32,000 nt of DNA from assembly GCA_041494705.1 (NCBI GenBank), contig JBGQBI010000006.1:169559-201558 (forward strand). Reading direction: 5' to 3'. The DNA is from Candidatus Methanoperedens sp. (GTDB taxonomy: Archaea; Halobacteriota; Methanosarcinia; Methanosarcinales; Methanoperedenaceae). Shown piece after piece: positions 8,671 to 29,769 of this stretch (the first letter of the stretch is position 1; each line of letters opens with the position of its first letter). Position numbers and translations under genes: made by a program. Under the pieces are notes generated by a model. It was not told the origin of the DNA, ran no database searches, and worked only from the letters and a program-made list of their open reading frames with translations.

Positions 8671-8740
8671 CCTTCTAATCCTTACTGAACCAATTCTTTT
8701 TATTAATATTAAAGTTTATTCTTGATATTATTATTATTAT

Positions 8741-8778
8741 GAATTTGGAATTTGAGTAAACTTTGAGTAAACTATATC
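8741..8778 (+). promoter_or_regulatory. Putative promoter with nested tandem repeats upstream of the AAA ATPase gene
   Basis: GAATTTG x2 (8741-8754) is followed by TTTGAGTAAAC x2 (8751-8761, 8762-8772). A TATA-like TATATC (8773-8778) lies about 20-25 nt before ATG 8797, which would give a leaderless or near-leaderless mRNA. Confidence 0.35.
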
Positions 8779-8796
8779 TTGTTTAATAACCCAATT

Positions 8797-12483: not shown

Positions 12484-12485
12484 TT

Positions 12486-14459
12486 ATGCAGGAAAATGTT
12501 ATTTTTGGGATAGATATCGCAAAAGGTTCAGTCCGGGCTAAAGAAGAGCCGAGGTATGCTGTTGTAATCCTTAAGGGGAACGAAGCCGAGCATCACCGTA
12601 TGGTAAGCAGGCAGAAATTGCTCAGGATGGCATGGCAGGAAAAACCGGCTTTAATCGCGGTTGATAATATTTTCGAGCTTGCTTCTGGTAAGCATGAGCT
12701 TGCATCAATTCTTTCGAAATTGCCTGCGAACACAAAACTCATCCAGGTAACAGGCGGAGAAAACCTTCTGCCCCTTGTAAAACTTGCAAAACAGCAGGGC
12801 ATCTCTTTTGACAGGTTCGACCCCAATGCGGAAGCCCTTGCCTGCGCCAGGCTTGCCGGGATGGGTATAGGATATGAGGTTTCGGCTTTTGAGGATAAAA
12901 CAATAATAAAAGTCAGCAGGGCGCGCTCACCCGGCAGGGGAGGATGGAGCCAGAACAGGTACAGGCGCAAGATGCACGGCTATGTGAGGCAAAAGGCAAG
13001 GGAAATAGAGGATTACCTGAATGAGCAATCAAAGACAAGAGGATTCACATTCACTCAGGATGTAACCGAAAGATTCGGCGGGTACTCAAAATCCGAGTTC
13101 TTCGTGGACGCGCCCCGAAATCAGGTTCATATCGGTTCAGGAAAATACGGCGATGTGCAGGTGAATGTCAGGAGCATAGAACGTGATGCTCTCTTTTTTA
13201 AACCGCTCAAAACACGGAAAAGGGATTATATTATCGTGGGCATCGACCCCGGTACAACAACTGCCATAGCTGTCGTGACGCTTGAAGGCGAACTCCGGAT
13301 GCTCTACAGTTCAAGAACAATCTCAATCCCGGATGTTATCGAAATGATTGCCGAACAGGGAAGACCGCTGATTATCGCAAGCGATGTATTCCCGACCCCG
13401 AACGCAGTTGAAAAAATCCGGCGCGCATTCAACGCAGTATCGGGCTCGCCGGATGTTATCCTGACAGCCGGGGATAAAATTGAGTTAGCAACGCCTTACG
13501 GGTATTCAAATAACCATGAGCGCGATGCCATAGCCGCTGCTGCATCGTTCTATCGTAAGAATAAGAATAAGTTTGAACAGATTAAGAAAAAAACACCTCA
13601 TGGAATGGATGCTGATGAAGTTATTGCGCAGGTTGTCAGGGGTAAGGCTGTAGATGCTGCAATACTGGAGCTGACCAAAAAAGAAACAAAAGCGCCGGAG
13701 GTCGCTCAAGTTCCCTTGAAAATGGAGGAAGAATCCCTTCATTTCAGGGAACTAATCAGAAAATATGAGGAAAGCATTGAGGAAATGAAAAAGTACCAGG
13801 ATGAATTGAAAACTGAACTTGATACTAAAGATGAAGAACTTAAAAAACTTGGGGAGCTCATCGAAAAACAGAGGTCTGAAGCGTATAAACAATTTAAAAA
13901 AGAAAAAATCGTACTGGTTCGTGATAAAGAGATTGCGCACCTGCGGAAGCGGCTATCGGAAAACAATAAGAAAATTTCATATTTAAACGAAAGGATACAT
14001 AGACTGAAACATATCCGCAGGCTTGAAATAAGCGGCAGGGCGCTCCCTGTAAAGATAATATCCGCATTTACAAAAGACAGCATCCTGAAGACACAGGAAG
14101 AGGTGGGAATTAAAAAAGACGATATAATACTCCTCAAAGATGCAAGCGGCGGCGGGAGTATTACTGCCAAAATGCTCTCTGACATGGGTGTTCGGGCTAT
14201 TATAATCTGCAACGATATGTCCCATGCGGCAGAAGAGGAACTTTTCAATCTTGGCATGCCTGTTTTAAAAGCAAAGGATGTGAATATCCAGTTCGACCCT
14301 GCCGGCGAGCTTGCTGTGATCAACCCTGATGATATTAAGAATTCGATTGAAGAGTGGAAAAGGAGGGCAGAACAGAGAAAGACAGCCGCCAAAGAGGAGT
14401 GGCTCAGGTCGCTTGTGGATGAATATAGGAGTGAAAGGCGGCGCAAGGTTAATGGATGA
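12486..14459 (+). CDS. DUF460 / COG2433-type protein (RNase H/RuvC-like fold nuclease candidate with long coiled coil)
   Basis: 657 aa. IVGIDPGTTTAIAVV resembles the first acidic motif of RNase H-fold nucleases. Residues ~400-510 are a K/E-rich coiled coil. It starts 2 nt after the rio2 stop. Confidence 0.75.
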   Translation: MQENVIFGIDIAKGSVRAKEEPRYAVVILKGNEAEHHRMVSRQKLLRMAWQEKPALIAVDNIFELASGKHELASILSKLPANTKLIQVTGGENLLPLVKLAKQQGISFDRFDPNAEALACARLAGMGIGYEVSAFEDKTIIKVSRARSPGRGGWSQNRYRRKMHGYVRQKAREIEDYLNEQSKTRGFTFTQDVTERFGGYSKSEFFVDAPRNQVHIGSGKYGDVQVNVRSIERDALFFKPLKTRKRDYIIVGIDPGTTTAIAVVTLEGELRMLYSSRTISIPDVIEMIAEQGRPLIIASDVFPTPNAVEKIRRAFNAVSGSPDVILTAGDKIELATPYGYSNNHERDAIAAAASFYRKNKNKFEQIKKKTPHGMDADEVIAQVVRGKAVDAAILELTKKETKAPEVAQVPLKMEEESLHFRELIRKYEESIEEMKKYQDELKTELDTKDEELKKLGELIEKQRSEAYKQFKKEKIVLVRDKEIAHLRKRLSENNKKISYLNERIHRLKHIRRLEISGRALPVKIISAFTKDSILKTQEEVGIKKDDIILLKDASGGGSITAKMLSDMGVRAIIICNDMSHAAEEELFNLGMPVLKAKDVNIQFDPAGELAVINPDDIKNSIEEWKRRAEQRKTAAKEEWLRSLVDEYRSERRRKVNG

Positions 14460-14479: not shown

Positions 14480-14556
14480 GCATTCTGAAAGGATAAGTTT
14501 AAGTATTTTGCTGATATGGGGGGAATAATAATAGGTTGATGATAGGAGTACTTCAT

Positions 14557-15519
14557 ATGCGATTTAAAAACGTTTCAAGGATTACAGGAATATTTTTTGT
14601 GCTGGTAACGTTATCCATACTGCAGTTGTTTGTTCAGCCTGCGACAGCGGCAGCGCCAAATTTGCCCAACAACTCTTGTGCAGATTGCCATCGCAGATTG
14701 CTTTTTAGTACAGAAGAACAGAGACAATTTATCGATATACGTATCAAGCATCTTGAAAGCGGCATTTCATGCTCCATAGTGTGCCATGAGGATAAACTAA
14801 ACAAGACCACTGCCAGTACCTATGCTTTGTGGTCTATATCCACGCATGCCCTTTTTGATGTAACATGCGAAAAATGCCATGGCGGCAACGCATCTGCAGT
14901 ATCAAAGCAGGAAGCACATGTGGGTTTATCAAATATCAGCATCGCACGTGCCAATACACCAGAAACATGCGGAAAATGCCATCAGGCCGAACTTGGAGAA
15001 TTCAAGAGCTCAAAACATTTTATGAAATTAGAATCGGGTGAAGAAGGGCCTGCCCCGGCATGCATCACATGCCACCAGGCGCACAGCGTGCGTGTCCTGA
15101 CGGCTTCTGAAATTGAGGATTTCTGCAGTAATTGCCATAATAATATAACAGGCATCGACCCGACCGTACCTAAAAAAGCAGAAAACGCATTATCTTCTGT
15201 TGGTGAATTGCGGGTTGAAATTTCAAAAGCCAGAAGCGCAATAAATACTGCAAAAGCAAAAAAATTGGATGTGACCCAGGCAGAAGTAAATCTGGATTCG
15301 GCAATGACAATCCTCAAAGATACCCCCTCGGTGTGGCACAGGTTTAATTTGACCTTTTTTGATACTGAAGTCCAAAAAGGCATCGCAGAAGCACAAAAAG
15401 CTACGAATGCAACGTCAAATGCTCAGGCAACTCCAGCAACTACGAAAGCACCCGGATTTGGGGCAGCCCTTTTTGTAATTGGGCTGTTTGTTGCATATTT
15501 CCTGAAAAGGTCTAGGTGA
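14557..15519 (+). CDS. Hexahaem c-type cytochrome with signal peptide and PGF-CTERM anchor (paralogue 1)
   Basis: It has five CxxCH motifs (CADCH, CEKCH, CGKCH, CITCH, CSNCH) and one CxxxCH (CSIVCH). The signal peptide ends ..QPATA/AAP. The C-terminus is PGFGAALFVIGLFVAYFLKRSR. An AGGAG Shine-Dalgarno lies about 10 nt before ATG 14557; the track start at 14536 is a TTG upstream. Confidence 0.9.
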   Translation: MRFKNVSRITGIFFVLVTLSILQLFVQPATAAAPNLPNNSCADCHRRLLFSTEEQRQFIDIRIKHLESGISCSIVCHEDKLNKTTASTYALWSISTHALFDVTCEKCHGGNASAVSKQEAHVGLSNISIARANTPETCGKCHQAELGEFKSSKHFMKLESGEEGPAPACITCHQAHSVRVLTASEIEDFCSNCHNNITGIDPTVPKKAENALSSVGELRVEISKARSAINTAKAKKLDVTQAEVNLDSAMTILKDTPSVWHRFNLTFFDTEVQKGIAEAQKATNATSNAQATPATTKAPGFGAALFVIGLFVAYFLKRSR

Positions 15520-15550
15520 ATCAAGGTGAAACTGACATAAGGAGGCAGAA

Positions 15551-16477
15551 ATGAACTTCAAAAAACCATATTTATTCGTTATTACACTTTTATTAGCTAT
15601 TATATTCGTACCTCTGGCTTTAGCAGATAATTCATGTTTAAATTGTCATGAAAAACTTTCTGCGTTTAATGAGACAGAACAACAATTCAATGAAATAAGA
15701 TTACAGCATCTGGGGCGGGACATACCATGTTCTCTTCAATGCCATACCGCAACCCTCAATAATTTTGCTCAAAGTAATTATTTACAGTGGACAAAATCCA
15801 AACATGCGCTGTTCAATGTCACATGTAATAATTGTCATGGAGGCAATCCGGATTCAGATATAAAAGAAACGGCGCATATCGGGATTTTAAGGTCTTCTGA
15901 TCCCAACAGCACTGTTTTTTACAGGAATGTGCCTGAAACATGCGGAAAATGTCATACTAATGAATTAACCCAGTTCAAGAATTCTGCGCATTATCAGAAA
16001 TTGAAAGCACTTCAGCAGGCTCCCACGTGTGATACCTGCCACAAACCGCATGAGTTCAAGATTCTGAATATAAGCGAATTCCACAATCTTTGCAGCCAGT
16101 GCCATAATATCGATATGAGAATTGCCCCATCGGATGCTCCCGATAGAGCTATCACCGCGCTTCAGAATGCAGATAAATTGACGAATGAGATAAAACTGGC
16201 CTATAATGATATACAGCAGGCAAAACAGAAAGGGATAGACGTATCGGCTGCACAGAACGATCTTAACGGCGCGATTTCAATCAGAGACGGCCTTCCGGTA
16301 CTCTGGCATGCATTTGACCTGCCATCATTCGGAAATGTAATCGATAGCGGAATAGCGGCTGCGCAGAAAGCACAGCAGGAATCCGGGGCGCCTGTGTCCA
16401 AACCAACTCCGGGATTTGGCATGATTGCCTCGATGACAGGAATTATTGCAATATACCTGCTCCTGCGCAGAAAGTGA
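15551..16477 (+). CDS. Hexahaem c-type cytochrome with signal peptide and PGF-CTERM anchor (paralogue 2)
   Basis: Its motif order matches paralogue 1: CLNCH, CSLQCH (CxxxCH), CNNCH, CGKCH, CDTCH, CSQCH. The C-terminus is PGFGMIASMTGIIAIYLLLRRK. An AGGAGG Shine-Dalgarno is present. Confidence 0.9.
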   Translation: MNFKKPYLFVITLLLAIIFVPLALADNSCLNCHEKLSAFNETEQQFNEIRLQHLGRDIPCSLQCHTATLNNFAQSNYLQWTKSKHALFNVTCNNCHGGNPDSDIKETAHIGILRSSDPNSTVFYRNVPETCGKCHTNELTQFKNSAHYQKLKALQQAPTCDTCHKPHEFKILNISEFHNLCSQCHNIDMRIAPSDAPDRAITALQNADKLTNEIKLAYNDIQQAKQKGIDVSAAQNDLNGAISIRDGLPVLWHAFDLPSFGNVIDSGIAAAQKAQQESGAPVSKPTPGFGMIASMTGIIAIYLLLRRK

Positions 16478-16490
16478 ATGAGGTGTATAT

Positions 16491-16835
16491 ATGAATAACA
16501 AACAATTGCAAATCTTTTTTTTGCTTGCGATAGTGCTCCTGTCGTATCTGCCATCCTTAACATCCGCAAGGCCTGAGTATGCGGTAAAAGAAAGCCGGAA
16601 TTGCCCGTATTGCCATTCACGGGACGGCCCTCCGCAGCTCAGTGAAGTTGGTATTTATTACGGAACACATAACCATTCATTCGTGGGTTATGTACCCTCT
16701 CCCAAAGCTACACCCACCCCCGAACCTACGAAAGAAATCGAGATAGGAATCCACATGAATACCTGGGATGTAGGTCTGAGCGCGATGGCCATTATTTTGC
16801 TGATATTGATTGTGGTTTACATTATACGGTTGTGA
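16491..16835 (+). CDS. Monohaem c-type cytochrome, signal peptide + C-terminal TM anchor
   Basis: 114 aa with a signal peptide (..LPSLTSA/RP), a single CPYCH motif, a TP-rich linker and a C-terminal hydrophobic helix. A GAGGTG Shine-Dalgarno is present. Confidence 0.75.
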   Translation: MNNKQLQIFFLLAIVLLSYLPSLTSARPEYAVKESRNCPYCHSRDGPPQLSEVGIYYGTHNHSFVGYVPSPKATPTPEPTKEIEIGIHMNTWDVGLSAMAIILLILIVVYIIRL

Positions 16836-16841
16836 GATAAT

Positions 16842-17117
16842 ATGCATATAGAGAAAATTGAATACGGACCGGAAAAAACAGGTATCTGGTCGCAGATAGC
16901 ATTTATTTTAATAATTTTACTGACACTCGCTGCTGCGGGAATTACAGGTGATATGGTCTGGAAGATTATATCCAGTGAACCTTCGGCGGCCTCGACGGAA
17001 TCATTCATAGCTGGGGTTGGAAAGCTGATGGCGTACCTCCTTTTCATCCTTGCAGCCATTTTGTATCTCTACGTAAAGGGATTGCTGCAGGATGAATACA
17101 TTACAACTCTGGAGTGA
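16842..17117 (+). CDS. Small membrane protein (two predicted TM helices), unknown function
   Basis: 91-aa ORF wedged 6 nt after the monohaem gene and 4 nt before the Rieske start. It has two ~20-residue hydrophobic stretches. No family was recognised. Confidence 0.5.
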   Translation: MHIEKIEYGPEKTGIWSQIAFILIILLTLAAAGITGDMVWKIISSEPSAASTESFIAGVGKLMAYLLFILAAILYLYVKGLLQDEYITTLE

Positions 17118-17121
17118 AAAC

Positions 17122-17616
17122 ATGGACGATAAAATCACTATTACCTTAACACGAAGGAAGCTCACAGAAATATTAATCGGTCTTGTTGCATTATTTTTCG
17201 CCTCGGGTGCGGTGGCGGCGGTATTGAAATACCTCTGGCCGCAAACCGAAGCAAAGGGTGAATCCGTAGAAGTAAGAATAGCAACGGTTGATGAAGTCCC
17301 GACAGGAAGTGCAAAAAATTTTGTTTTCAATGGCAAGGCTGCCGTCCTCCTGCACATGCCCGCCGGCTTTCGGGCATTCGGACGCGTATGCACTCACCTT
17401 GGCTGCATCGCCTCCTGGAAATCTGATGAGACTGTGATATATTGCCCCTGCCACATAGGGAAATACGACCCGAATACTGGTGCTGTAATCTCAGGACCAC
17501 CCCCATCTCCTTTACCAATGATAGATATTTCAGTAAAGGATGGCGCGGTTTACGCTCTCAACTGGAAAGATCCAAACTATGTGAAATCCATATCGTTCTA
17601 TGCGGGGGCGGCCTGA
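17122..17616 (+). CDS. Rieske [2Fe-2S] protein
   Basis: Box I is CTHLGC and box II is CPCHIGKYD. The N-terminal TRRKL plus hydrophobic helix resembles a Tat signal-anchor. GGAG lies 7 nt before ATG 17122; the track start at 17092 overlaps the previous ORF. Confidence 0.9.
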   Translation: MDDKITITLTRRKLTEILIGLVALFFASGAVAAVLKYLWPQTEAKGESVEVRIATVDEVPTGSAKNFVFNGKAAVLLHMPAGFRAFGRVCTHLGCIASWKSDETVIYCPCHIGKYDPNTGAVISGPPPSPLPMIDISVKDGAVYALNWKDPNYVKSISFYAGAA

Positions 17617-18279
17617 ATGTCATTCCTCGATAAGATCTACAAATGGCTCGATGACAGGTTCAAATTAAGAGACCTGCTGCCCCCCATAGTCAAGCATCCT
17701 GCGCCTGAAGATGTTATATCCAATCCACTTTATTGCCTTGGAGGGACAGCATTCCTGTGTTTCATAATTCTTGTTATTACGGGAATATTCCTGGCAATGT
17801 ACTACAAGCCCACTCCTGGAGAGGCATATAAGAGCGTCCAGACTATAATGACAACTGTCCCGATGGGTTCGCTTGTGAGAAGCGTGCATCACTGGGCTGC
17901 AAATACAATGATAGCGGCCGTGATGCTTCACATGATAAGGATTTATTTCATGGGCGCTTATAAGAAGCCCCGCGAATTGAACTGGGTGGTGGGAATATTC
18001 CTGCTCCTGACGGTTACCACCTTCGGTTTTTCAGGCTATCTTCTCCCGTGGGACCAGCTTTCTTTCTGGGCGACCAAGATCGGAACTGGCATAGCAGGCT
18101 CAATGCCGATAATAGGCGGGTATATCTCGTTAATCCTGATGGGAGGGAACGATATCGGCGCCGAGACGCTGACAAGGTTTTTTGCCATACATGTATTGAT
18201 TCTTCCCATGGCAATTGCAGGTCTACTGGGGATGCATTTCCTGATGGTCCGGATACAGGGAATTTCAGGGAGGCTCTAA
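17617..18279 (+). CDS. Cytochrome b, N-terminal (b6-type) subunit
   Basis: 220 aa. It has two His pairs for haems bL/bH (SVHHW..13..MLHM and FAIHV..13..GMHF). The b6-type YCLGG motif is present. The start codon abuts the Rieske stop. Confidence 0.92.
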   Translation: MSFLDKIYKWLDDRFKLRDLLPPIVKHPAPEDVISNPLYCLGGTAFLCFIILVITGIFLAMYYKPTPGEAYKSVQTIMTTVPMGSLVRSVHHWAANTMIAAVMLHMIRIYFMGAYKKPRELNWVVGIFLLLTVTTFGFSGYLLPWDQLSFWATKIGTGIAGSMPIIGGYISLILMGGNDIGAETLTRFFAIHVLILPMAIAGLLGMHFLMVRIQGISGRL

Positions 18280-18280
18280 T

Positions 18281-18742
18281 ATGACTTTGATTGAAGTTGA
18301 AAAACATGAAGTGGAAGAACCGAAATCAGAACCTGTGCGTGTGCGCGGGCTTCCGTTTTTCCCGCATTTCTTACTTCGTGAAGTGGTTGTAATGTGCCTT
18401 ATTGCAGGAAGCCTCATATTACTGGCATCGTATTACCCGGCAAGCCTGCTTAAGCCGGCTGACCCCTTTGATACCCCAACACCGATATACCCTGAATGGT
18501 ATTTCCTTTATGTCTTCGGTTTCCTGAAATTCTGGACATGGAATATCGGACCGATACCTGCAAAAATCATAGGCGTAACTCTGCCGATGATTCTCTGGTA
18601 TGGTCTTCTGATACTGGTGCCATTTATTGACAGGAACCCCTCATCTGATATAAGGAGAAGAAAACTTGCGGTTGCACTCGGGATTATAGCCCTGATTGGC
18701 GTACTGTATTTCACATACTACGGCATAGTTCACGGAGAATGA
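18281..18742 (+). CDS. Cytochrome b C-terminal domain protein (subunit IV / PetD-like)
   Basis: 153 aa with the Qo-site PEWYFLY motif and three hydrophobic helices. A GGGAGG Shine-Dalgarno is present. Confidence 0.88.
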   Translation: MTLIEVEKHEVEEPKSEPVRVRGLPFFPHFLLREVVVMCLIAGSLILLASYYPASLLKPADPFDTPTPIYPEWYFLYVFGFLKFWTWNIGPIPAKIIGVTLPMILWYGLLILVPFIDRNPSSDIRRRKLAVALGIIALIGVLYFTYYGIVHGE

Positions 18743-18918
18743 AACTTTCAAAGTCGGAATATGAACGCATAGATGCAGTATCCAAAATACTGGGACTGAT
18801 ACTGCTGGCGTTCAGCATAGATAATGCATCAAAGGGCAATTATTATATTGCCCTTGCTCTTTTTGGCATAGGCGGGATAATAAGTATCGTGCCCGTGTTT
18901 ATTAAGGTTGAGACTTGA
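18739..18918 (+). CDS. Untracked 59-codon hydrophobic ORF, candidate small subunit of the Rieske/cyt b complex
   Basis: My translation is MKLSKSEYERIDAVSKILGLILLAFSIDNASKGNYYIALALFGIGGIISIVPVFIKVET. Its ATG overlaps the subunit-IV stop as ATGA (18739-18742). It has one to two hydrophobic helices and is below the 60-aa cutoff of the ORF track. Confidence 0.45.
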   Translation: MKLSKSEYERIDAVSKILGLILLAFSIDNASKGNYYIALALFGIGGIISIVPVFIKVET

Positions 18919-19150
18919 GTTTGAGAATCGTTTTTAATTCAGCCTCGTTTACTTTGTAAGTGAAGGTTTTTTCGCCGTCTATTTCTATTACTGGTATCAG
19001 ATACTTGTATTTTTCAAATATCTCTTTGTCTTTTTCGATATCCACTTCCATTAACGAGAATGGAAATTCTTTCCGGATTTTTATAAGGGCTTCTTTGGCG
19101 ATGTCACACAAGTGGCAGTTTTTTTTGGAGTAAATCGTTATATTGACCAT
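18902..19150 (-). CDS. Glutaredoxin-like small thioredoxin-fold protein (DUF836-like)
   Basis: 82 aa. The N-terminal beta-strand plus redox motif reads ITIYSKKNCHLCD, with the typical ..IPVIEIDGE.. later in the sequence. Confidence 0.75.
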   Translation of the reverse strand: MVNITIYSKKNCHLCDIAKEALIKIRKEFPFSLMEVDIEKDKEIFEKYKYLIPVIEIDGEKTFTYKVNEAELKTILKLKSQP

Positions 19151-22347: not shown

Positions 22348-24621
22348 TTATCCGGTTTTGGATTTCGTACCCATTATCAGGATAATCCCGAAGGCAAAGA
22401 GTATGATGCCTGCCCATGCAAAATTAACCGCCGGGATGATTTTCAGCGTAAGGGGGATATAACCGCCGCTCTCGCCCTGGAAAATAACATATACATCCGT
22501 ACCTGTGATGCTTCTGTCAACCATCGGGAACGTCCCGCTGCCACCATTTCCCGAAAGGTATTCGGCTACACCGCTGCCAATCATTCGCTGGTTCTGGTAA
22601 ACTTCAAGTTTGACATCCTGAACGTTATACCTGTTCGATGTATCAAGACTATCACTATTGACTGCACTCAGCACTGGCTGCGCAAAACCGGTCATGATAT
22701 TACCGGTCACGGTCAGCCCGGCGCCGATTGTTTCTGTGATATTTCCGGGGAATACGGCCAACATGCTTCCTGAATTATCGGTCAGTTCCACAAGCGTGCC
22801 GTGTCCCTCCAGTGAACTTATATTTGTTATTTGCCCGCTTATTTTTACACTTGTCCCTTCAAATGCCGACGGGTTGTTCAAGATATCGGCAATTGGAGTC
22901 CCTGGGTAGGACTGTGTGTTTCCGGTCAGGCTGCTCGTCGACAGGTCAATAAACTTTACACCATAGCCATTCCCGATGTCGACCAATTCTCCTTTTGCAG
23001 TAAGCGGAATATTAATATTGTCTTTCGTGGATGTGAAACTGGAACTGATAATCGCGCCAAAAAGTATGAACACCACTCCAAAGTGTACTGCCGCTATGCC
23101 GATGCCTTTTATCCTGGGGCGGAGGCTTGTGATGCGCAGGTATTCCTGAAGCCGGTTTACTATTGCCCATGCCGCATAAATAAGTGATGGGAAGATGGAA
23201 ATGACCGAGATGGAACCTATCAGTTTATAGAGGGTGGGCTCACGTACAAAGAAGGGGCTTGTGTGGTCAAGAACATAGAAATTCGATGTTCGGAGAAACA
23301 TTGTTATTACCGAGAGCGCGGCAACCGCAGCAAGGTTTTGTATCTGGGTTTTTTTATCGGATTCCTTATAGTTCAAGCAGAACCCGAGCGCAAGCAGTAA
23401 TATGATGGTGAAAGGATAGCTCCATATATTAAAAAAGTTCTTGGTGTCGGAGGCTACGTTCACTTTAAGCCCCTGTGTCAATTGGATAAATACCGGGAAA
23501 GTGATACCCCAGAAAGAGATGAAAGCCAGGATAACGAATAAGAGGAGAGTTATATAGAAGATATTTGTTTTGTTCCAGAGCCCTTTATCCTCTTCAACCG
23601 TTTCAGTCTCTTCAAAGTATCGCCGCAGGCCAAGAACAAGGGAAATCACTGCGGCTATCAGGATAGATATGATTAGTAATGTGCCTGTGGAAGTCTCCCC
23701 GAAGGCATGGACAGAATTGAAAAGCCCGCTTCGAACAACGATGGCGGCGTATAGTACCAGAATGAACGAAACCGCAGCAAGCATCGGTGCTGCTATCGAG
23801 AAGGTTGTTTTATTCTTCCTGTGAAGAGATGCAGCATGTAGATAACCCGTGAGTGTAAGCCAGGGTATGAATGATGCAGTCTCGACAGGGTCCCATGCCC
23901 AGAACCCGCCCCAGCCCAATACCAGGTATGCCCAGACGCCGCCCACAGCTATGCCCATACCAAGGAATAACCAGGTAAATCGCGCCCACTGCCTGCCCAG
24001 TTCTTCCCAGCCTTCATCCTTTGTAAGCAGGTACACTATGGCAGTAGCAAAGGGTATTGTCATTGCTGCATAACCTATGAACATAAGAGGCGGATGGATG
24101 GTCATCCAGAAATTCACAAGCAGCGCGTTAAGACCGCTGCCGTCCGGGGGTACAAAACCCGCGGGGACATTTGATAATTCATAAATGGACTTAAATGGGG
24201 TCTGGATAAGCGTAAGCACTGTAAAATATATTCCTACTGCAAGAGTTATTATTTGCGTCCTTCTTGCCAGGGCAGTTGCATGCTTTGTGGTTTGTGCAAG
24301 CCATGCTGCCGAGATGAATATCACCCATACCCACAGAAGGTATGTGCCGGGTTGTCCCGCCCATGTCCCGGCTATTTTATAAATCAGCGGGAGGTCGCGG
24401 CTTGAGTACTGCCAGACGTATTCATAGGTAAAGTCGCTCACCACGAAATAATAGGTGATAAGGAGATAAGCGAAAGTCAAAAGCCCGGCTGTCAGGAATA
24501 TCAAGGGCGAGACGAATCTATTCAGGATATCGATATTTTTCTCTTTAAATATTAGCCCGATAAGCGCAACAGCGCTTACGAGAATGCTTAAATAAAGTAT
24601 TGAATCACCGAAAGTTATCAT
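22348..24621 (-). CDS. ccmF: Cytochrome c-type biogenesis protein CcmF (System I haem lyase)
   Basis: 757 aa and polytopic. The WWD signature is WGGFWAWDPVE. A large extracytoplasmic domain precedes the last TM helix, as in CcmF/NrfE. Confidence 0.9.
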   Translation of the reverse strand: MITFGDSILYLSILVSAVALIGLIFKEKNIDILNRFVSPLIFLTAGLLTFAYLLITYYFVVSDFTYEYVWQYSSRDLPLIYKIAGTWAGQPGTYLLWVWVIFISAAWLAQTTKHATALARRTQIITLAVGIYFTVLTLIQTPFKSIYELSNVPAGFVPPDGSGLNALLVNFWMTIHPPLMFIGYAAMTIPFATAIVYLLTKDEGWEELGRQWARFTWLFLGMGIAVGGVWAYLVLGWGGFWAWDPVETASFIPWLTLTGYLHAASLHRKNKTTFSIAAPMLAAVSFILVLYAAIVVRSGLFNSVHAFGETSTGTLLIISILIAAVISLVLGLRRYFEETETVEEDKGLWNKTNIFYITLLLFVILAFISFWGITFPVFIQLTQGLKVNVASDTKNFFNIWSYPFTIILLLALGFCLNYKESDKKTQIQNLAAVAALSVITMFLRTSNFYVLDHTSPFFVREPTLYKLIGSISVISIFPSLIYAAWAIVNRLQEYLRITSLRPRIKGIGIAAVHFGVVFILFGAIISSSFTSTKDNINIPLTAKGELVDIGNGYGVKFIDLSTSSLTGNTQSYPGTPIADILNNPSAFEGTSVKISGQITNISSLEGHGTLVELTDNSGSMLAVFPGNITETIGAGLTVTGNIMTGFAQPVLSAVNSDSLDTSNRYNVQDVKLEVYQNQRMIGSGVAEYLSGNGGSGTFPMVDRSITGTDVYVIFQGESGGYIPLTLKIIPAVNFAWAGIILFAFGIILIMGTKSKTG

Positions 24622-24622
24622 T

Positions 24623-25105
24623 TTATTTGCTCCTGACCGTATCTCTTACCTGGGTCACTATTGGCATTAAATAGTCTGGGCCCACCGCTCCCGGAACCCT
24701 CTGGAGCACATTGCCGTTCGGATCCATGAAAATCAAATAAGGCGGGTAGCCGACACCGTACCTGCTTGAAACATCCCTGTCAACATCAAGGTCCATTGCC
24801 ACGAGAACATAATCATTCTCCAGTATTTGTTTCACCTGTGGATTCCCGAGAGTATCGGTCTGGAATTTTGCGCAGTACTGGCACCATATTGCCCAGAAAT
24901 ACACCATGACCGGTTTTTTTTCCTGCTGTGCTATCTGGAATCCTTTTTCAAGACCGGAATCCGAGCGATAGAATTTGATACCGCCGAGATATGAATTATT
25001 TTTATCTGACAGCGTGAATTTTGAAAGAGCGATATTGTAAGAGCCATAAGCGAAGGAGATTATCAATATTAATACAAGGATTGTCAGAAGTTTCTTGGTT
25101 TTCAT
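24623..25105 (-). CDS. Membrane-anchored thioredoxin-fold protein (WCQYC), Trx paralogue 2
   Basis: 160 aa with an N-terminal signal-anchor helix and the redox motif YFWAIWCQYCAKF. It is paralogous to the ORF at 28640-29098. Its stop lies 1 nt before the ccmF start. Confidence 0.8.
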   Translation of the reverse strand: MKTKKLLTILVLILIISFAYGSYNIALSKFTLSDKNNSYLGGIKFYRSDSGLEKGFQIAQQEKKPVMVYFWAIWCQYCAKFQTDTLGNPQVKQILENDYVLVAMDLDVDRDVSSRYGVGYPPYLIFMDPNGNVLQRVPGAVGPDYLMPIVTQVRDTVRSK

Positions 25106-25206
25106 ATTTGGTTCCTGATTGACTGGAATTGGATATAAGGTGTGTGGTTTTAATCGATGTTTTTTGCTTATTTTTGATTTAATTCATTTTCTTATGCATG
25201 TATATA

Positions 25207-25240
25207 CTTTACGATATGTGTAAAGCGGGTTATAATATAA
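25207..25240 (-). promoter_or_regulatory. TATA box + CTTTAC-N7-GTAAAG palindrome (site 2)
   Basis: The minus-strand read is TTATATTA-TAACCCG-CTTTAC-ACATATC-GTAAAG. It lies about 100 nt upstream of the Trx2 start, and the TATA abuts the stop of the upstream gene. Confidence 0.4.
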
Positions 25241-25242
25241 AT

Positions 25243-26631
25243 TCATACGATAGGCAGCGTCAATATCCTTACTCCGATGCCCAGATAAACAACTGCAACA
25301 ATACTCACGGCGAGCATGCCCTGTTTCAGCTCATGTTCACTATTTGATACCTTTTTGCTGATAAGATACCCTGCCCATATGGTAAATATGAAACCGGCAC
25401 TTAATAATGCTATTTGCATATGGTCAATGGCATCAAAATCTACTGCGAATTCCCATACTTTACCGAAGAGCTGCCCTATGACGCCAGCAATGAAAAACAG
25501 CCCTTTTAATAAACGGAATGTGTTTTCAGCCAGATAAACGGACAGGCTTAAAGGAAGGAATGCGTAGGACAGCTCGATAAATTTTTGTTTTGTATTCTTT
25601 CCTGAAAAGGACATTTTTGCAGAGAGATGCATCAGGCCTGCCGCGCCCAGTGTTATCGCCGCGAATATAATGATTGCCCACATATTTCTCCAGTAAAGGT
25701 CAAGGAAAGTGATTGAATTGTAAGGAAGTGTGGATTTGACAAAATTGATAATCATATTCCTGAATTGCAGCCGTTCCATTCCCAGTACAAAGAGGAAGAT
25801 AACGATAATGCCATGAACCAGGTATGCCTCGTCAAGATGTGTTTTTTTCATATTGACTACATCGGCGCCGGGAAGCCTCGGGCTTATGCGGATATTGTCT
25901 TTTGAACATGATTTGACGCATTCCATGCACATGATACACTGGTTATTGCGTTCCATGGTCTGCGGGGATTCGCCGACTGGGCAGGCTTTACCGGCTTCGT
26001 TACCGATGACGCATTCCTTGATATCATGGTCCTGGCAGGTTTTTTTCGACTTGCAGCGAAGTTCTGTTGCAGAGAGCATGGAGAATAAACCGAGCACAAG
26101 CCCGATAGGACAGATATAACGGCAAAAACTTCGTTTTTCATAAATGAATCCCATCAATATAGCAAGACCGGTGAAGAATAAAAGCAGGTATGCGGTGTTC
26201 GGCGGATTCCTCGTAAACATGAAAAGATGCCGCTCAGCAGCGAAAATGAACAGGAAGAATATAACCGCTATCCAGAGATTGCGGTACTTTTCAGGATATT
26301 TCTTTTTAACACTATAGACAGATTGCGTCCAGTCGCCGACTGCTCCTATGGGACAGGCAAAACACCAGAGCCTTCCAAAAATGATGAGCGTAAAAACAAG
26401 TAGTGGATGCCAGATATCCCATATCATGGTTGTTGCAAACGGTATCCCGCCGCGGAAACGCAGGTCGGGTTCGCTTGACAGCCCGAAATAAATAATTATC
26501 AAGAGCGCTATGAAAAAAATTACATTGACAGCAGGCCTGAAGAACCTATTTTTTACAAGATTCCTGAAAAAATAGACATCAAGCAAATCGGATTTTTCTG
26601 CATTATCGTTATTTTCATTGTTTTTATCCAT
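25243..26631 (-). CDS. Polytopic membrane Fe-S protein of the NapH/NosR/CcoG(FixG) type
   Basis: 462 aa. It has two membrane-edge CX3CP motifs (WCFACPIG, FCRYICPIG) and a central Cys-rich soluble segment including CIMCMECVKSC (CxxCxxCxxxC). About 10 hydrophobic helices are present. Confidence 0.8.
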   Translation of the reverse strand: MDKNNENNDNAEKSDLLDVYFFRNLVKNRFFRPAVNVIFFIALLIIIYFGLSSEPDLRFRGGIPFATTMIWDIWHPLLVFTLIIFGRLWCFACPIGAVGDWTQSVYSVKKKYPEKYRNLWIAVIFFLFIFAAERHLFMFTRNPPNTAYLLLFFTGLAILMGFIYEKRSFCRYICPIGLVLGLFSMLSATELRCKSKKTCQDHDIKECVIGNEAGKACPVGESPQTMERNNQCIMCMECVKSCSKDNIRISPRLPGADVVNMKKTHLDEAYLVHGIIVIFLFVLGMERLQFRNMIINFVKSTLPYNSITFLDLYWRNMWAIIIFAAITLGAAGLMHLSAKMSFSGKNTKQKFIELSYAFLPLSLSVYLAENTFRLLKGLFFIAGVIGQLFGKVWEFAVDFDAIDHMQIALLSAGFIFTIWAGYLISKKVSNSEHELKQGMLAVSIVAVVYLGIGVRILTLPIV

Positions 26632-26637
26632 GTTTCC

Positions 26638-27363
26638 TCAAATCAACGCCGGAAAATAAGGCAGCAATTTTGCCTGGAGATATTTATCAATCCCGAAGAG
26701 CATCATCAATCCGAGAAGTATTAAAATCAGGCCTGAGAGCCTCTTAAAGAAATGCCCTCTTTTCACAAACCAGCTTACCCTGCCCGAAATGCTCTTGCCC
26801 GAATATGCTATGGCAAGCATCGGAAGGCTGACGCCAAGTGAATATGCTATCAGCAGGAAAGTACCATGCAGGAGATTGCCTGTGCTTGCGGTACTTTCAG
26901 CCACATAAGCAAACACCGCGCCGAGAATCGGGCCCACGCACGGTATCCAGAGAATTCCAAGGGACATGCCCAGGAAGAAACCGCCTGTTATTCCTTCCCT
27001 TGGCGCGATTGAAGAGATTTTCCCGAAAAATGATACATGCGCACGGGCAAAGTTAACAATAGAACTTGAAAAATTCACGAATGCATTGTTAATATCATCA
27101 TCAAATAATACGGCTCCCATTCCGATAATGAAAAATATCGAGAACCAGCGAAGGTATTCTGCAAAAAATGAAAAAGAAGTGAGCGCAGAAACAAGTAGTC
27201 CCATAAGCGTGAAGGTTATGGACATGCCAGTGACTATGGCAACGGGACGAAGACGGCTGCCCACAGAACCCGAAAGCACTGCGGGCAGGATGGGAAGAAC
27301 ACATGGCGTTATCACTGTCGCCATGCCTGCTAAGAAAACCAGGAATACCGATGGTGCTGGCAT
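26638..27363 (-). CDS. ccdA: CcdA/DsbD-family transmembrane thiol-disulfide electron transporter
   Basis: 241 aa with the two conserved membrane Cys contexts VITPCVLPILP and WIPCVGPILGA. Confidence 0.88.
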   Translation of the reverse strand: MPAPSVFLVFLAGMATVITPCVLPILPAVLSGSVGSRLRPVAIVTGMSITFTLMGLLVSALTSFSFFAEYLRWFSIFFIIGMGAVLFDDDINNAFVNFSSSIVNFARAHVSFFGKISSIAPREGITGGFFLGMSLGILWIPCVGPILGAVFAYVAESTASTGNLLHGTFLLIAYSLGVSLPMLAIAYSGKSISGRVSWFVKRGHFFKRLSGLILILLGLMMLFGIDKYLQAKLLPYFPALI

Positions 27364-28626
27364 TTATGTTCTGGCTTCTGCGTCTATATTGTCGTTGTCC
27401 GCCTGGATTGTTGTCAGATCGCCTGTCTCCTTTATAATCAATATATTGCCTTTCATTTGGGGATTATACGTCTTAAAACCAGCGGAAATTGATTTATTGT
27501 CTGTTATATTGAACGCCTTGACAAGCTCAACCTTGCCGGAAACCGGGGTCATGCTCATATAATTTATATCAGAAAACTTGTGTGGCTCAGTTATTACACG
27601 CGCATAAGCGGCGCCCTGGTAATCAACTGCATCAAGCAGCGGTTTATAGGTAGAATATGATGTGGTCATGCCATGCGGGTCTTTTATCAATTTCAATACG
27701 TTATCCACGTTCTGGGTGTGCCCGTAAATAAGCGGTCTTGTATATATGATGTTTTCATATCCTTGTTCAGCATGCGCCTTCAGTGTTTCATCTTTTGTGC
27801 TGTCATAACCCAGGTCATGCAATTCGATCCAAGAAGTAGGGCTGTAATCTGCGCTGTACATGCCGATTATCGTTTTGCCGTAGAACGAATCAGGCTCTAC
27901 GTAAGTCTCTAAATACTTCGCCTCCAGCTCTGTTCCGGCAATCATTTTGGTATTGATGAAATAAGCACTGTTGACGCCTGCCGGTGTAAGGTTCAGGCCA
28001 TCTGCAAGTGATTTGAAATTGGAAGGCAGGCTGTATTTTGAAAGGTCAAGCACAGCTGGCGTTGGGGCAACGGTTGGTATTCCAGCCGCTTTGGGTGAGA
28101 GTATGGGTATATAACCATCTCTTACAGGAAGCGTGTTTGTATTCTGACCCGGGTATTTGGTGCCGTATTCCTGGTCTATAAGCGCCCGTGCTTCCGTTAG
28201 CGTCTTGCCCTGTGTAAGGTAATCCTGGACTTTTATGGCCTCTCCGACACATGTATCACAGAATGAGGCATGTTCATCGTATGTCCAGTCATCGTGAATG
28301 AAACAGTCTCGCAGGAACCTGTGACCCGAATGCCCGCCGCAACCGCAGTAGCATGGTATTTGTTCAAGCAGGTCAGGATGTTCGGTGGCATACGTGTATG
28401 CTTTAAGTGTCAGGGGGTTTGTATAAACGTAACTTGGGAATTTTATTTGATTAGCAGATGTTTTCGTGGATGTGGAACTGCTGGTTGTACCTGAAAAGAG
28501 AGCATACGCTGCCCCGGCAAGTAAGATTACAGCTACAACTCCAATGATCAACGTACTATTTCCTTTATTTTTCTGGATTTTTTCATCCTTTGCTTTCACA
28601 GTTTTTGCTTTTTTTTCGGGCTTCAT
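27364..28626 (-). CDS. Membrane-anchored PCYCGC-domain protein with uncharacterised ~230-aa C-terminal domain
   Basis: It has an N-terminal TM helix and an S/T-rich linker. The domain sequence is AYTYATEHPDLLEQIPCYCGCGGHSGHRFLRDCF....DEHASFCDTC....LTQGKTLTEARALIDQEYG (PCYCGC family pattern). The start was chosen at ATG 28626, 7 nt after a GAGG; the track start at 28650 is a TTG overlapping the upstream gene. Confidence 0.75.
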   Translation of the reverse strand: MKPEKKAKTVKAKDEKIQKNKGNSTLIIGVVAVILLAGAAYALFSGTTSSSTSTKTSANQIKFPSYVYTNPLTLKAYTYATEHPDLLEQIPCYCGCGGHSGHRFLRDCFIHDDWTYDEHASFCDTCVGEAIKVQDYLTQGKTLTEARALIDQEYGTKYPGQNTNTLPVRDGYIPILSPKAAGIPTVAPTPAVLDLSKYSLPSNFKSLADGLNLTPAGVNSAYFINTKMIAGTELEAKYLETYVEPDSFYGKTIIGMYSADYSPTSWIELHDLGYDSTKDETLKAHAEQGYENIIYTRPLIYGHTQNVDNVLKLIKDPHGMTTSYSTYKPLLDAVDYQGAAYARVITEPHKFSDINYMSMTPVSGKVELVKAFNITDNKSISAGFKTYNPQMKGNILIIKETGDLTTIQADNDNIDAEART

Positions 28627-28639
28627 TTTCATGCCTCTT

Positions 28640-29098
28640 TTATGTTGCAATTTTATTTATTGTGTTAAGAAACGTTTCAGTATCCGTATATCCGGGTATC
28701 CTTTTTATCTCGGTGCCGTTTGAATCAAGAAATATCTCTGTGGGTGTGCCGTGTACCCTGAAATTCCTGGTTTCGTTTTTCTGGTTGTACACATCTATTG
28801 AAACCAATATGAAGTTTCCGTTTAATGTCTTTATTACGCTCTGGTTTGTGAAGGTTTCTTCTTCAAATTTCTTGCACCATCCGCATGATTCAGACCTTGC
28901 ATAAACAAATACCGGCTTGCCCTGTGCTTTTGCAGCGCCCAGCGCTATGGAAGGGTCGGTATAGAATTTCACACCTTGAAGAGTTAATTTTTCTGAGTCA
29001 GGGTTATTTGGTGAAGTACCTGCGTTACTCGCCTGGGAAGTCAAGCAACCTGAGATAATCACAAGCAGGGCAAGTAATATGAATATCGATTTCTTCAA
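28640..29098 (-). CDS. Thioredoxin-fold lipoprotein (CGWC), Trx paralogue 1
   Basis: 152 aa with a signal peptide and lipobox (VIISGC) and the redox motif SESCGWCKKF. It appears to start at a TTG; no in-frame ATG would preserve the signal peptide. Confidence 0.8.
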   Translation of the reverse strand: MKKSIFILLALLVIISGCLTSQASNAGTSPNNPDSEKLTLQGVKFYTDPSIALGAAKAQGKPVFVYARSESCGWCKKFEEETFTNQSVIKTLNGNFILVSIDVYNQKNETRNFRVHGTPTEIFLDSNGTEIKRIPGYTDTETFLNTINKIAT

Positions 29099-29108
29099 GT
29101 GAATCTAA

Positions 29109-29135
29109 CTTTACAATGCATGTAAAGTAATATAA
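29109..29135 (-). promoter_or_regulatory. TATA box + CTTTAC-N7-GTAAAG palindrome (site 1)
   Basis: The minus-strand read is TTATATTA-CTTTAC-ATGCATT-GTAAAG. The palindrome ends 11 nt before the TTG start of Trx1. Confidence 0.45.
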
Positions 29136-29169
29136 GGATTTTGGTTATGACTGAAATTTCAGCAAATTT

Positions 29170-29196
29170 AAAAAAAGAGGAGACGGATGGCTCCCC
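29170..29196 (-). terminator. Hairpin + T7 terminator after the TP-rich lipoprotein gene
   Basis: The minus-strand read is GGGGAG-ccatccgt-CTCCTC followed by TTTTTTT, about 28 nt after the stop at 29224. Confidence 0.45.
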
Positions 29197-29223
29197 TGTT
29201 GAATTAAAGGCTTCTAAGTGAAG

Positions 29224-29769
29224 TCAGTACCCGTACCCTGAAGTGGTTGCCGTCGCGGTTGAAGTGGCAATCGATGGAATCGATGTGGCGTTTAAAGGCG
29301 CAGTTATGGTAATCATCCGCTCATCAGACCAGTAGTTTGCGCCGCCGATTATTGCATGCGCCCTGTAATATACGACTCCGGCTTTGTTAATTACAATAGT
29401 TGCATTGAACTCCGCAGGTATCATGCCCGAAATCGGCGTTGTTAAGCTGGGATAGCTCGCAAGCGTGAGAGGCTCAGATTTCGACACCGGGCCGTAATGT
29501 ATCGCAGTGTGCTGAATATTGACCTGGATTGGATTGTTGACCCGCCACGATACCACAAACCCCTGTCCTGCTACCGCTGTAGCCGGTGCATTTAAGACCT
29601 CAACGCTTGCGCCAGGCGTTGGCGTGGCAGTAGTGGGTGTTGGAGTCGGCGTCATGACCGGTGTAACGATCGGCGTGGGAGTGCCTTTTGGTGCGCTCAC
29701 ACAGCCCGAAATTAACGAAGATACGATAGCAATAGCAGCTATCCAAATAATAATTTTACCCCTTATCAT
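29224..29769 (-). CDS. Secreted lipoprotein with Thr/Pro-rich linker and unassigned beta-rich domain
   Basis: 181 aa with a signal peptide and lipobox (LISGC) and the linker TPTPIVTPVMTPTPTPTTATPTP. A ~110-aa domain follows (..HTAIHYGP...ANYWSDE..). A GGAGG Shine-Dalgarno lies 8 nt upstream. Confidence 0.6.
   Translation of the reverse strand: MIRGKIIIWIAAIAIVSSLISGCVSAPKGTPTPIVTPVMTPTPTPTTATPTPGASVEVLNAPATAVAGQGFVVSWRVNNPIQVNIQHTAIHYGPVSKSEPLTLASYPSLTTPISGMIPAEFNATIVINKAGVVYYRAHAIIGGANYWSDERMITITAPLNATSIPSIATSTATATTSGYGY

Follow-up and report, generated by a model that had tools for sequence, protein, structure and literature searches.

A conserved ccmF-linked gene block of Candidatus Methanoperedens with a putative extracytoplasmic redox module of a variant archaeal System I

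A 32,000-nucleotide (nt) stretch of Candidatus Methanoperedens DNA (contig JBGQBI010000006.1), called the window below, carries on its minus strand a compact block of genes for two thioredoxins (TrxA and TrxB), a protein of the PCYCGC/CYCXC family, the thiol-disulfide transporter CcdA, a NapH-like polytopic Fe-S membrane protein, and the haem lyase CcmF. Six of the seven genes originally described here make up a conserved core with the order trxA-PCYCGC-ccdA-napH-like-trxB-ccmF. We favour, with modest confidence, the view that this block is an accessory redox module within a variant archaeal System I operon for cytochrome c maturation. The view draws on the gene content and motifs of the block, its conserved synteny, the ccmE/ccmF operon that it forms in distant relatives, a selenocysteine (Sec) substitution in bacterial relatives of the PCYCGC protein, and the recurrence of PCYCGC with a DsbD-family protein in a second ccm operon.

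Gene content and synteny

The initial annotation of the window had described seven co-oriented minus-strand genes between positions 22348 and 29769. Inspection of the open reading frames (ORFs) and profile searches against Pfam and NCBIfam confirmed all seven, with the domains and motifs ascribed to them (Table 1). The reported gaps also stood: ccmF is separated from trxB by 1 nt and napH-like from ccdA by 6 nt, and ccdA abuts the PCYCGC gene (a TAAATG junction). The gap from trxB to napH-like is 137 nt. The start of the PCYCGC gene, however, was corrected from the ORF end at 28650 to the ATG at 28626 (MKPEKK...), as indicated by its orthologues and by public gene calls, which leaves a 13-nt gap to trxA in place of an 11-nt overlap. 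The absence of ccmA, ccmB, ccmC, and ccmE from the window was borne out by Pfam scans of its other sizeable ORFs.

Conservation of this arrangement was assessed in a scan of one genome per GTDB species, with an alignment of seven NapH-like sequences as the query, used in place of a 20-sequence alignment that was too diverse for this purpose. The scan returned 80 loci (individual loci are given below by their L numbers), and their six-frame ORFs were searched with the seven window proteins. Orthologous and collinear blocks were found in 47 loci from different GTDB species genomes, with the identity of the NapH-like protein ranging from 96% down to 41%. They span many Methanoperedens species as well as at least five metagenome-assembled genomes (MAGs) of ANME-2 (anaerobic methanotrophic archaea), Methanosarcinaceae, or Methanoperedenaceae; in the first homologue search, all close homologues of the NapH-like protein had come from Candidatus Methanoperedens. 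Because it is collinear in so many loci of different species genomes, the arrangement exceeds chance by far. The PCYCGC gene lies directly upstream of napH-like in all 43 loci that could be assessed, trxA is upstream of napH-like in 42 of them, and ccdA stands between PCYCGC and napH-like in 34. Downstream of napH-like, trxB and ccmF are each present in 38 of 40 assessable loci. The motifs CYCGC, H-x3-CxxC, and WCQYC are near-invariant, with L051 alone differing (CYCSC and WCKWC). The PCYCGC-CcdA-NapH-like triad, of which conservation as a neighbourhood had been asked, is therefore kept throughout in its two outer members, but not in the middle one.

Several Methanoperedens MAGs carry two copies of the block on different contigs (L005/L026, L012/L027, L014/L042, and L025/L028), and in two of these four pairs one copy lacks ccdA (L026 and L027). 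Jumbo elements carrying Ccm genes have been reported (PMC13444090).

The haem lyase and two ccm sets

The CcmF protein of the window has about 12 transmembrane (TM) helices, with an extracytoplasmic domain of ~200 residues preceding the last of them. Its PF01578 match (103.7 bits) is above the cutoff of 29.9, and residues 39-443 align to T. thermophilus CcmF (6ZMQ) at E 1e-41, with the WWD motif GWGGFWAWDPVE as well as IHPP, YLHAA, and SVHAF, which carry the WWD-flanking histidines, retained. The C-terminal half is divergent; CcmF_C (PF16327) was not detected by Pfam in this protein, and its score on TIGR00353 (232.7 bits) is below the cutoff of 569 and close to that on the NrfE model TIGR03145 (228 bits).

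In the most distant relatives (L046, L048, and L051), which belong to ANME-2/Methanosarcinaceae, a ccmE gene (PF03100, E 1e-21 to 1e-25) is located directly upstream of trxA. The resulting order is ccmE-trxA-PCYCGC-ccdA-napH-like-trxB-ccmF, with 4-nt overlaps. This position of ccmE suggests that the block is a ccmE...ccmF operon of a variant System I, which supports its original description as an extracytoplasmic thiol-redox and cytochrome-maturation island.

A second ccm set of Methanoperedens is more canonical and is encoded on a single strand as ccmE-ccmF(CcmF_C)-ccmH-Ig-like protein-ccmH-Cupredoxin_1-DsbD_TM-short PCYCGC-YHS/DUF2933. CcmF_C was detected in the CcmF of this set in L051, L066, and L091. 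CcmH (PF03918), for which none of the seven window proteins gave a match, was found only in the second set; the block of the window belongs to the set that lacks it. The two ccmE/ccmF sets are arranged in tandem in L051 and are 2.6 kb apart in L043. As the second operon also includes DsbD_TM and a short PCYCGC, the placement of PCYCGC beside a DsbD-family protein is recurrent in both ccm operons of these archaea.

Thioredoxins and the thiol-disulfide transporter

TrxA is characterized by a lipobox (ISGC) and a CGWC motif, and matches the DsbD gamma region with 53.8 bits and the C terminus of TsoB with 57 bits. TrxB matches the DsbD gamma region with 40.7 bits and falls outside the CcmG/DsbE family (TIGR00385, 19 bits against a cutoff of 123). 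Its motif, WCQYC or, in L051, WCKWC, is present in every orthologous locus where TrxB was seen. Encoded 1 nt from ccmF, TrxB probably has a CcmG-like role. CcdA scores above the cutoffs for both DsbD_TM (PF02683, 48.8 against 27.1 bits) and DsbD_2 (39.6 bits); its Pro-Cys motifs contain Cys21 (ITPCVLP) and Cys142 (WIPCVGP), the two conserved Cys of the TM1 and TM4 type. Three proteins of the block are predicted to face outward and not, as a contrary finding would have had it, the cytoplasm: TrxA by its lipobox, and TrxB and PCYCGC by N-terminal signal anchors with positive N-termini.

The size of TrxB varies. In clusters of the M. nitroreducens type that lack ccdA (L040:9641-10381 and L016) it has ~246 residues instead of the usual ~160, and the additional segment of ~85 residues is inserted between the membrane anchor and the thioredoxin domain. 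Many Methanoperedens genomes also encode a second CcdA paralogue on the opposite strand, just 3' of ccmF, which scores ~230-280 bits against the CcdA of the window. It is located at ~12300-13900 (minus) in L006, L007, L010, L015, L018, L020, L021, L030, L033, L035, L036, and L041; the window has a radical SAM gene just downstream of ccmF instead.

The NapH-like Fe-S membrane protein

Two Cys-Pro motifs, CxxCP (C90xxC93P) and CxxxCP (C170xxxC174P), are positioned at the predicted cytoplasmic ends of TM2 and TM4 of the NapH-like protein. Eight further Cys in residues 193-242, in two groups of four, form a ferredoxin-like domain, and their pattern points to putative [4Fe-4S]-type clusters. The AlphaFold 2 (AF2) model (predicted local distance difference test, pLDDT, 86; predicted template modelling score, pTM, 0.87) contains nine TM helices; the ferredoxin-like domain is inserted after TM4, ahead of TM5, and the protein ends in a C-terminal bundle of five TM helices. 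In the family alignment W71, W74, W89, C90, C93, P94, C170, and C174 are invariant, as are C199, C217, C235, C238, and C242 of the ferredoxin-like domain, with C207 and C232 conserved in at least 90%. All 12 Cys would lie on the cytoplasmic side of the membrane, since the internal Fe-S domain needs cytoplasmic assembly and Lys and Arg abound in the loops to which the motifs belong. The published topology of NapH and NosR reportedly agrees with such a placement.

The label NapH/CcoG-like holds only in part. The Fer4_5 match (40.9 bits) and the Cys-Pro motifs support it, whereas the scores are below the NapH family cutoffs (TIGR02163, 33.1 bits against 213; NF007013, 31.5 against 234) and no CcoG/FixG NCBIfam model or Pfam FixG_C was among the matches at E<=0.01. 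NapG/NapAB genes are absent from the window and from the orthologous loci, and Pfam revealed neither an FMN-binding domain (PF04205) nor ApbE in the seven proteins or their neighbours. The model has no fold neighbour, and the protein no sequence match, in the PDB. The wider family comprises 2111 representative clusters at E<1e-3. Among 150 family representatives none is fused to CcdA, Trx, or PCYCGC; the fusions seen in relatives are to the extracytoplasmic domains YHS, cupredoxin + COX2, and DOMON, and to PD40. They agree with a published view that treats NapH-like proteins as modules for electron transfer across the membrane (PMC8238504).

A paralogue of the NapH-like protein (~33% identity) occurs in Methanoperedens in islands with HMA/YHS P-type ATPases, zf_CopZ, an ArsR-like regulator, a MerA-like reductase, a CcmC-like protein, and another CcdA. 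An exosortase-like protein and an ABC ATPase are also encoded in these islands, and in L072, L058, L062, and L074 the paralogue (~8000-9400) is always preceded by a secreted protein of ~460 residues. In M. nitroreducens ANME-2d (L082:8010-11285) it is followed directly by proteins of 433 and 142 residues with four CXXCH each. By size and motif count alone these resemble NrfA and NrfH, which hints at a respiratory role of the paralogue.

The PCYCGC protein and its selenocysteine relatives

The PCYCGC protein starts with an N-in signal anchor, continues with a helical Cys-rich domain (CYCGC...H...C...H...CxxC) in which six Cys and two His are conserved, and ends in an alpha/beta domain specific to the lineage. 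It scores 70.1 bits on PF13798 (cutoff 25) and 73.8 on NF041379, under the equivalog cutoff of 90, and its PCYCGC domain has no sequence or profile match in the PDB. When three aligned PCYCGC sequences served as the query of a homologue search, most of the matches were the short Methanoperedens paralogue.

More informative relatives are found in bacteria. In six NC10/Rokubacteria loci the gene of a small membrane-anchored CYCxC protein immediately precedes that of a NapH-like homologue (~30% identity), and the pair has neither CcdA nor Trx nearby. All six CYCxC ORFs contain an in-frame TGA. In each, it aligns exactly with the residue that opens the CxxC of the window protein, Cys131 (EHASF-C-DTC), and read-through restores the conserved tail. 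The same in-frame TGA with read-through is present in the homologue from Thermomicrobium roseum. A recent review lists a 'CYCXC family protein (OS_HP4), PF13798, UxxC' as a selenoprotein (PMC13188914). The selenocysteine at this position marks the CxxC of the PCYCGC protein as its predicted redox-active centre. In the AF2 model (pLDDT 78) the CxxC is found at the N-terminus of helix 124-138, and the N-terminus of a long helix is the classical site of a redox-active CxxC. The loci with a TGA-containing CYCXC gene are L053 (6904-7371 plus read-through), L054, L057, L067, L075, and L083, as well as L087:4842-5291. The annotated coding sequence of T. roseum stops at the TGA, and probable selenoproteins are thus shortened in public annotation.

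The coupling of CcdA with the NapH-like protein had been put forward as the key feature of the block. Since CcdA is missing from its slot in nine of 43 orthologous loci and the PCYCGC + NapH-like pair recurs without it in NC10/Rokubacteria, that coupling is not invariant, and the more widely conserved pair is PCYCGC with NapH-like. The bacterial pair is itself part of a conserved block, which comprises a P19-like protein, CYCXC, NapH-like, EB_dh (a haem b domain), multihaem cytochromes, Rieske, and cytochrome b. The multihaem-Rieske-cytochrome b portion of these loci resembles window positions 14536-18742, with matches of 47-192 bits.

The C-terminal 250 residues of the PCYCGC protein (window 27364-28122, minus strand) are lineage-restricted and were seen only fused to PCYCGC. 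This domain, modelled by AF2 with high confidence, resembles the T. pallidum lipoprotein TP0453 (E 2.5e-5, TM-score ~0.46) and might bind a hydrophobic ligand or the membrane. Its sole neighbours in the PDB are crystal forms of TP0453, a membrane-sensing lipoprotein.

Comparison of PCYCGC with archaeal CcmH (PF03918) by hhalign gave a probability of 59.6% and a score of 34 over 42 columns, a weak match that hidden Markov model searches against sequences did not support. Column shuffles scored 12 +/- 8.7, and one of 200 reached 34. The aligned segment extends from the Sec/Cys site through the helix hairpin that follows, and the CcmH profile was validated against 2KW0 and 2HL7; hmmscan and PDB-profile searches gave no support to the match. 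Kinship between PCYCGC and CcmH is no more here than a weak lead.

Boundaries and surroundings of the block

The TP-rich lipoprotein gene, counted at first as part of a seven-gene island, is found among the orthologous loci only in the closest relatives and its product has no Pfam or NCBIfam family match. It is separated from trxA by 125 nt that include a terminator-like hairpin followed by a run of seven T. This predicted site is the boundary of the unit, and the lipoprotein gene lies outside the conserved module. A CCTTATAT box is located ~25-35 nt upstream of trxA and likewise of trxB, which suggests two transcription units in this genome, with the spacer before trxB probably acting as an internal promoter. 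In L046, L048, and L051 that spacer is only 37-47 nt long. The hairpin/T-run site and the TATA-like boxes were read by eye, a sigma-70 scan being set aside as unsuited to an archaeon.

Table 1. Features of the block and its flanks (window coordinates)
Feature	Position	Strand	Details
CcmF/NrfE-family haem lyase, divergent	22348..24621	-	757 aa; PF01578 103.7 bits
TrxB, membrane-anchored thioredoxin, WCQYC	24623..25105	-	160 aa; Thioredoxin_2 and Thioredoxin_7 matches
trxB 5' spacer, AT-rich, 137 nt, with CCTTATAT TATA-like box	25106..25242	-	read by eye
NapH-like polytopic Fe-S protein	25243..26631	-	462 aa; Fer4_5 40.9 bits
CcdA, DsbD beta-type thiol-disulfide transporter	26638..27363	-	241 aa; DsbD_TM 48.8 bits
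PCYCGC/CYCXC-family protein	27364..28626	-	420 aa from ATG 28626; PF13798 70.1 bits
TrxA, thioredoxin lipoprotein, CGWC	28640..29098	-	152 aa; Thioredoxin_2 and Thioredoxin_7 matches
Spacer with terminator-like hairpin and T7 run (29197-29176), then CCTTATAT box upstream of trxA	29099..29223	-	
TP-rich lipoprotein, neighbour outside the conserved module	29224..29769	-	181 aa

According to Pfam, the remainder of the window contains housekeeping genes along with multihaem cytochrome genes and a Rieske/cytochrome b unit. The two multihaem c-type cytochromes, one of them PGF-CTERM-anchored, are located at 14536-18742 (+) together with two small conserved ORFs without a Pfam match and genes for Rieske, cytochrome b, and the cytochrome b C-terminal part. 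A tie between this cluster and the block was considered and rejected, as other Methanoperedens genomes do not keep the two near each other. Another thiol-redox gene near the block encodes a small glutaredoxin-like protein of 82 residues (PF05768/PF00462; ~18902-19150, minus), which stands between the cytochrome b genes and phosphoglucomutase in the gene calls on an identical contig (L001:17482-17730). The same sequence is also present on a 2.07-Mb contig and in assembly GCA_041480985.1. Recent horizontal transfer was rejected as well: the GC content of the island (0.40-0.49) is like that of the remaining window and gives no compositional sign of it.

Proposed function and alternatives

For the module we infer the electron-transfer steps, the donor, and the final substrate, all from sequence. 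In the favoured reading CcmF would attach haem, with CcmE encoded directly upstream in the more distant relatives, and the membrane-anchored TrxB would reduce the cysteines of apocytochrome CXXCH motifs in a CcmG-like role. CcdA and the lipoprotein TrxA would together correspond to a split DsbD (beta + gamma) that passes reducing equivalents outward by thiol-disulfide exchange. An archaeal precedent, in favour of this reading, is the CcmG-CcdA pair MA4254-4255 of Methanosarcina acetivorans (PMC9084895). The PCYCGC protein would act as a membrane-anchored, outward-facing redox protein with the NapH-like polyferredoxin as its conserved partner; the latter would take up low-potential electrons in the cytoplasm, because its Fe-S domain and both Cys-Pro motifs are predicted to face that side. 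The module would then keep extracellular apocytochrome thiols, and possibly also haem iron or a thiophilic metal, in the reduced state. Methanoperedens makes many multihaem cytochromes. A direct pairing of the NapH-like protein with PCYCGC, with CcdA and TrxA forming a parallel split-DsbD route, is one of two options that we regard as live.

Several observations weigh against this assignment. Most genomes in the comparison are MAGs, and the CcdA slot is empty in the nine loci mentioned above, among them that of the M. nitroreducens type genome. M. acetivorans can do without ccmG and ccdA under reducing conditions in the laboratory (PMC9084895). No Cys of the NapH-like protein is predicted to be extracytoplasmic, which leaves the electron route to an outward-facing partner unexplained, and TM7, which contains HLAHNxxH in most relatives, a motif that could hold haem, reads YLAENTF in this clade. 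Finally, the wider-family contexts of the PCYCGC and NapH-like proteins point to metals (copper ATPases, ArsR, SCO, cupredoxin, and YHS).

The alternatives differ in the direction and purpose of electron flow. The other live option, the relay proposed originally, appears fairly unlikely. In it the NapH-like protein would serve as a membrane-bound disulfide reductase fed by ferredoxin (or quinol) and would employ its [4Fe-4S] clusters and the Cys of CxxCP and CxxxCP to reduce CcdA in place of cytoplasmic thioredoxin, and CcdA would then reduce TrxA, PCYCGC, and TrxB. The relay is favoured by the 6-nt gap between ccdA and napH-like and their adjacency in 34 of 43 loci, by the four invariant motif Cys at the predicted cytoplasmic membrane face beside the Fe-S domain, a geometry that recalls ferredoxin:thioredoxin reductase, and by the absence from this clade of the TM7 histidines, which might give relatives a route through haem. 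It is disfavoured by the nine empty slots, with no CcdA within 8 kb in L016, L027, L040, and L043, by the bacterial pair that lacks CcdA and Trx, and by the lack of any fusion to CcdA or Trx among the 150 representatives. About equally tentative is a broader proposal, that PCYCGC and this NapH-like subfamily form a new system, separate from DsbD/CcdA, in which ferredoxin or quinol drives the export of reducing power to a thiol/selenol protein outside the cytoplasm. Its recruitment to System I would have taken place in archaea of the Methanoperedens type, with PCYCGC replacing the missing CcmH as the apocytochrome-facing reductant. Somewhat less doubtful, and compatible with the favoured reading, is a dedicated second haem lyase system following the logic of NrfEFG, in which a CcmF paralogue with private redox helpers matures special cytochromes, for instance very large multihaem or non-CXXCH ones, and the canonical ccmE-ccmF-ccmH set takes care of the others; this would account for the presence of two sets. 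The tandem or closely spaced ccmE/ccmF sets of L051 and L043, the absence of CcmH and Pfam CcmF_C from the first set and their presence in the second, and the near-equal scores of CcmF on TIGR03145 and TIGR00353 agree with it, as does the specialisation of CcmF paralogues proposed for ANME (PMC9012536). Against it, no cytochrome gene is consistently found next to the block, and the multihaem/Rieske cluster of the window is not conserved nearby elsewhere.

A module for copper or another thiophilic metal is unlikely in our view. Here the NapH-like protein would be a CcoG-like metal reductase, PCYCGC would bind Cu(I) or another soft metal, CcdA and the thioredoxins would keep the ligands reduced, and the link to ccm would be that apocytochrome CXXCH thiols are a prime target of copper poisoning; CcoG acts as a cupric reductase, and the assembly of cytochrome c is a target of copper. 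The fusions of NapH-like relatives to YHS, cupredoxin + COX2, and DOMON, the metal-related islands of the Methanoperedens paralogue, and the Cys6His2 pattern of PCYCGC speak for such a function. So do the neighbours of PCYCGC proteins: Cupredoxin_1, YHS, and DUF2933 flank the short paralogue, Firmicute PCYCGC lipoproteins adjoin genes for ArsR/SmtB, a P-type ATPase, SCO, DsbA, and a disulfide oxidoreductase, and a P19-type iron/copper-binding protein precedes the NC10 pair. The orthologous block, however, contains no metal transporter, chaperone, or metalloregulator and always ends with trxB-ccmF. Copper or heavy-metal genes accompany paralogues and distant homologues; the orthologous clusters are always found with CcmF. 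A Sec residue at the CxxC fits a redox catalyst better than a protein for metal storage, and no CcoG model matched. Protection of apocytochrome thiols from copper may be an idea that unifies the two sets of signals. Very unlikely is the last alternative, that the NapH-like protein is a subunit of a respiratory quinol/methanophenazine:cytochrome oxidoreductase and a mere neighbour of the ccm genes, unrelated to maturation. The block around the NC10/Rokubacteria homologue does include EB_dh, multihaem cytochromes, Rieske, and cytochrome b, and ANME NapH homologues have been suggested to oxidise quinol (PMC9012536). The archaeal gene, in turn, is found inside the trxA...ccmF block, with gaps of 0-6 nt on the side of ccdA, and this conserved block contains no cytochrome or reductase gene.

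Comparison with known systems

We regard the block as a strongly conserved and uncharacterised form of System I that has an extracytoplasmic redox module of its own. A literature search found no paper linking PF13798 or a NapH-like protein to ccm genes, in agreement with the original statement that no described system of such composition was known. Whether CcmH and CcmI are replaced in archaea by non-orthologous proteins has been an open question (PMC9084895), and the block supplies concrete candidates for the replacement in PCYCGC, the NapH-like protein, and two DsbD gamma-like thioredoxins, all tied to a CcmH-less CcmF. It also provides the first functional context for PF13798, previously only a domain of unknown function with selenoprotein members, and suggests a new class of partner for the widespread NapH-like transmembrane electron-transfer module. 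Methanoperedens needs dozens of multihaem cytochromes that couple methane oxidation to the reduction of nitrate, iron, or manganese; their maturation in an oxidising environment bears on methane cycling, and the block may show how cytochrome-rich archaea supply reducing power outside the cell.

With the thio-reduction branch of bacterial System I (DsbD or CcdA -> CcmG -> CcmH, and the CcmF/H synthetase) the block shares a CcdA-type transporter, a membrane-anchored thioredoxin next to ccmF, the WWD motif of CcmF, and, in its relatives, an upstream CcmE. It differs in lacking CcmH, CcmD, and CcmI, in the insertion of two extra genes (PCYCGC and NapH-like), in having two DsbD gamma-like thioredoxins and none of the DsbE/CcmG type (TIGR00385), and in the divergent C-terminal half of CcmF. 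The streamlined Ccm system of M. acetivorans, which consists of CcmABCEF and the dispensable CcmG-CcdA, is likewise an archaeal System I without CcmD and CcmI that combines a CcmG-like thioredoxin with CcdA (PMC9084895). There, ccmG-ccdA and ccmF are found at separate places, and the description includes neither PCYCGC nor an Fe-S membrane protein (PMC9084895). Here, all of the genes are in one block with ccmF (and, in relatives, ccmE), and Methanoperedens has a CcmH-containing set in addition.

The NapH/NosR/PceC/CcoG/FtrD polyferredoxins have in common with the NapH-like protein the Cys-Pro motifs of Fer4_5, which follow two TM helices, a domain of the 2x[4Fe-4S] type, and modular pairing with varied extracytosolic partners (PMC8238504). 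The protein described here is distinguished by an additional C-terminal 5-TM bundle, by the lack of FMN-binding/ApbE, NapG/NapAB, NosZ, or cbb3 genes nearby, and by a partner that is a Cys/Sec protein encoded in a ccm operon. Other members of the CYCXC/PCYCGC family (PF13798; NF041379, OS_HP4), a family without an assigned function, share CYCGC and H-x3-CxxC with the window protein, which is in turn membrane-anchored, carries the extra 250-residue TP0453-like domain, and is encoded in a ccm operon beside CcdA and the NapH-like protein. Scs systems link a DsbD-family protein and thioredoxins to thiophilic-metal stress; as no homologues of ScsA, ScsC, or ScsD were detected in the block, the likeness to ScsABCD/DsbD copper tolerance is one of analogy only. 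The same applies to NrfEFG, which also combines a CcmF paralogue with helpers of its own, while the block has no homologues of NrfF or NrfG (CcmH/TPR).

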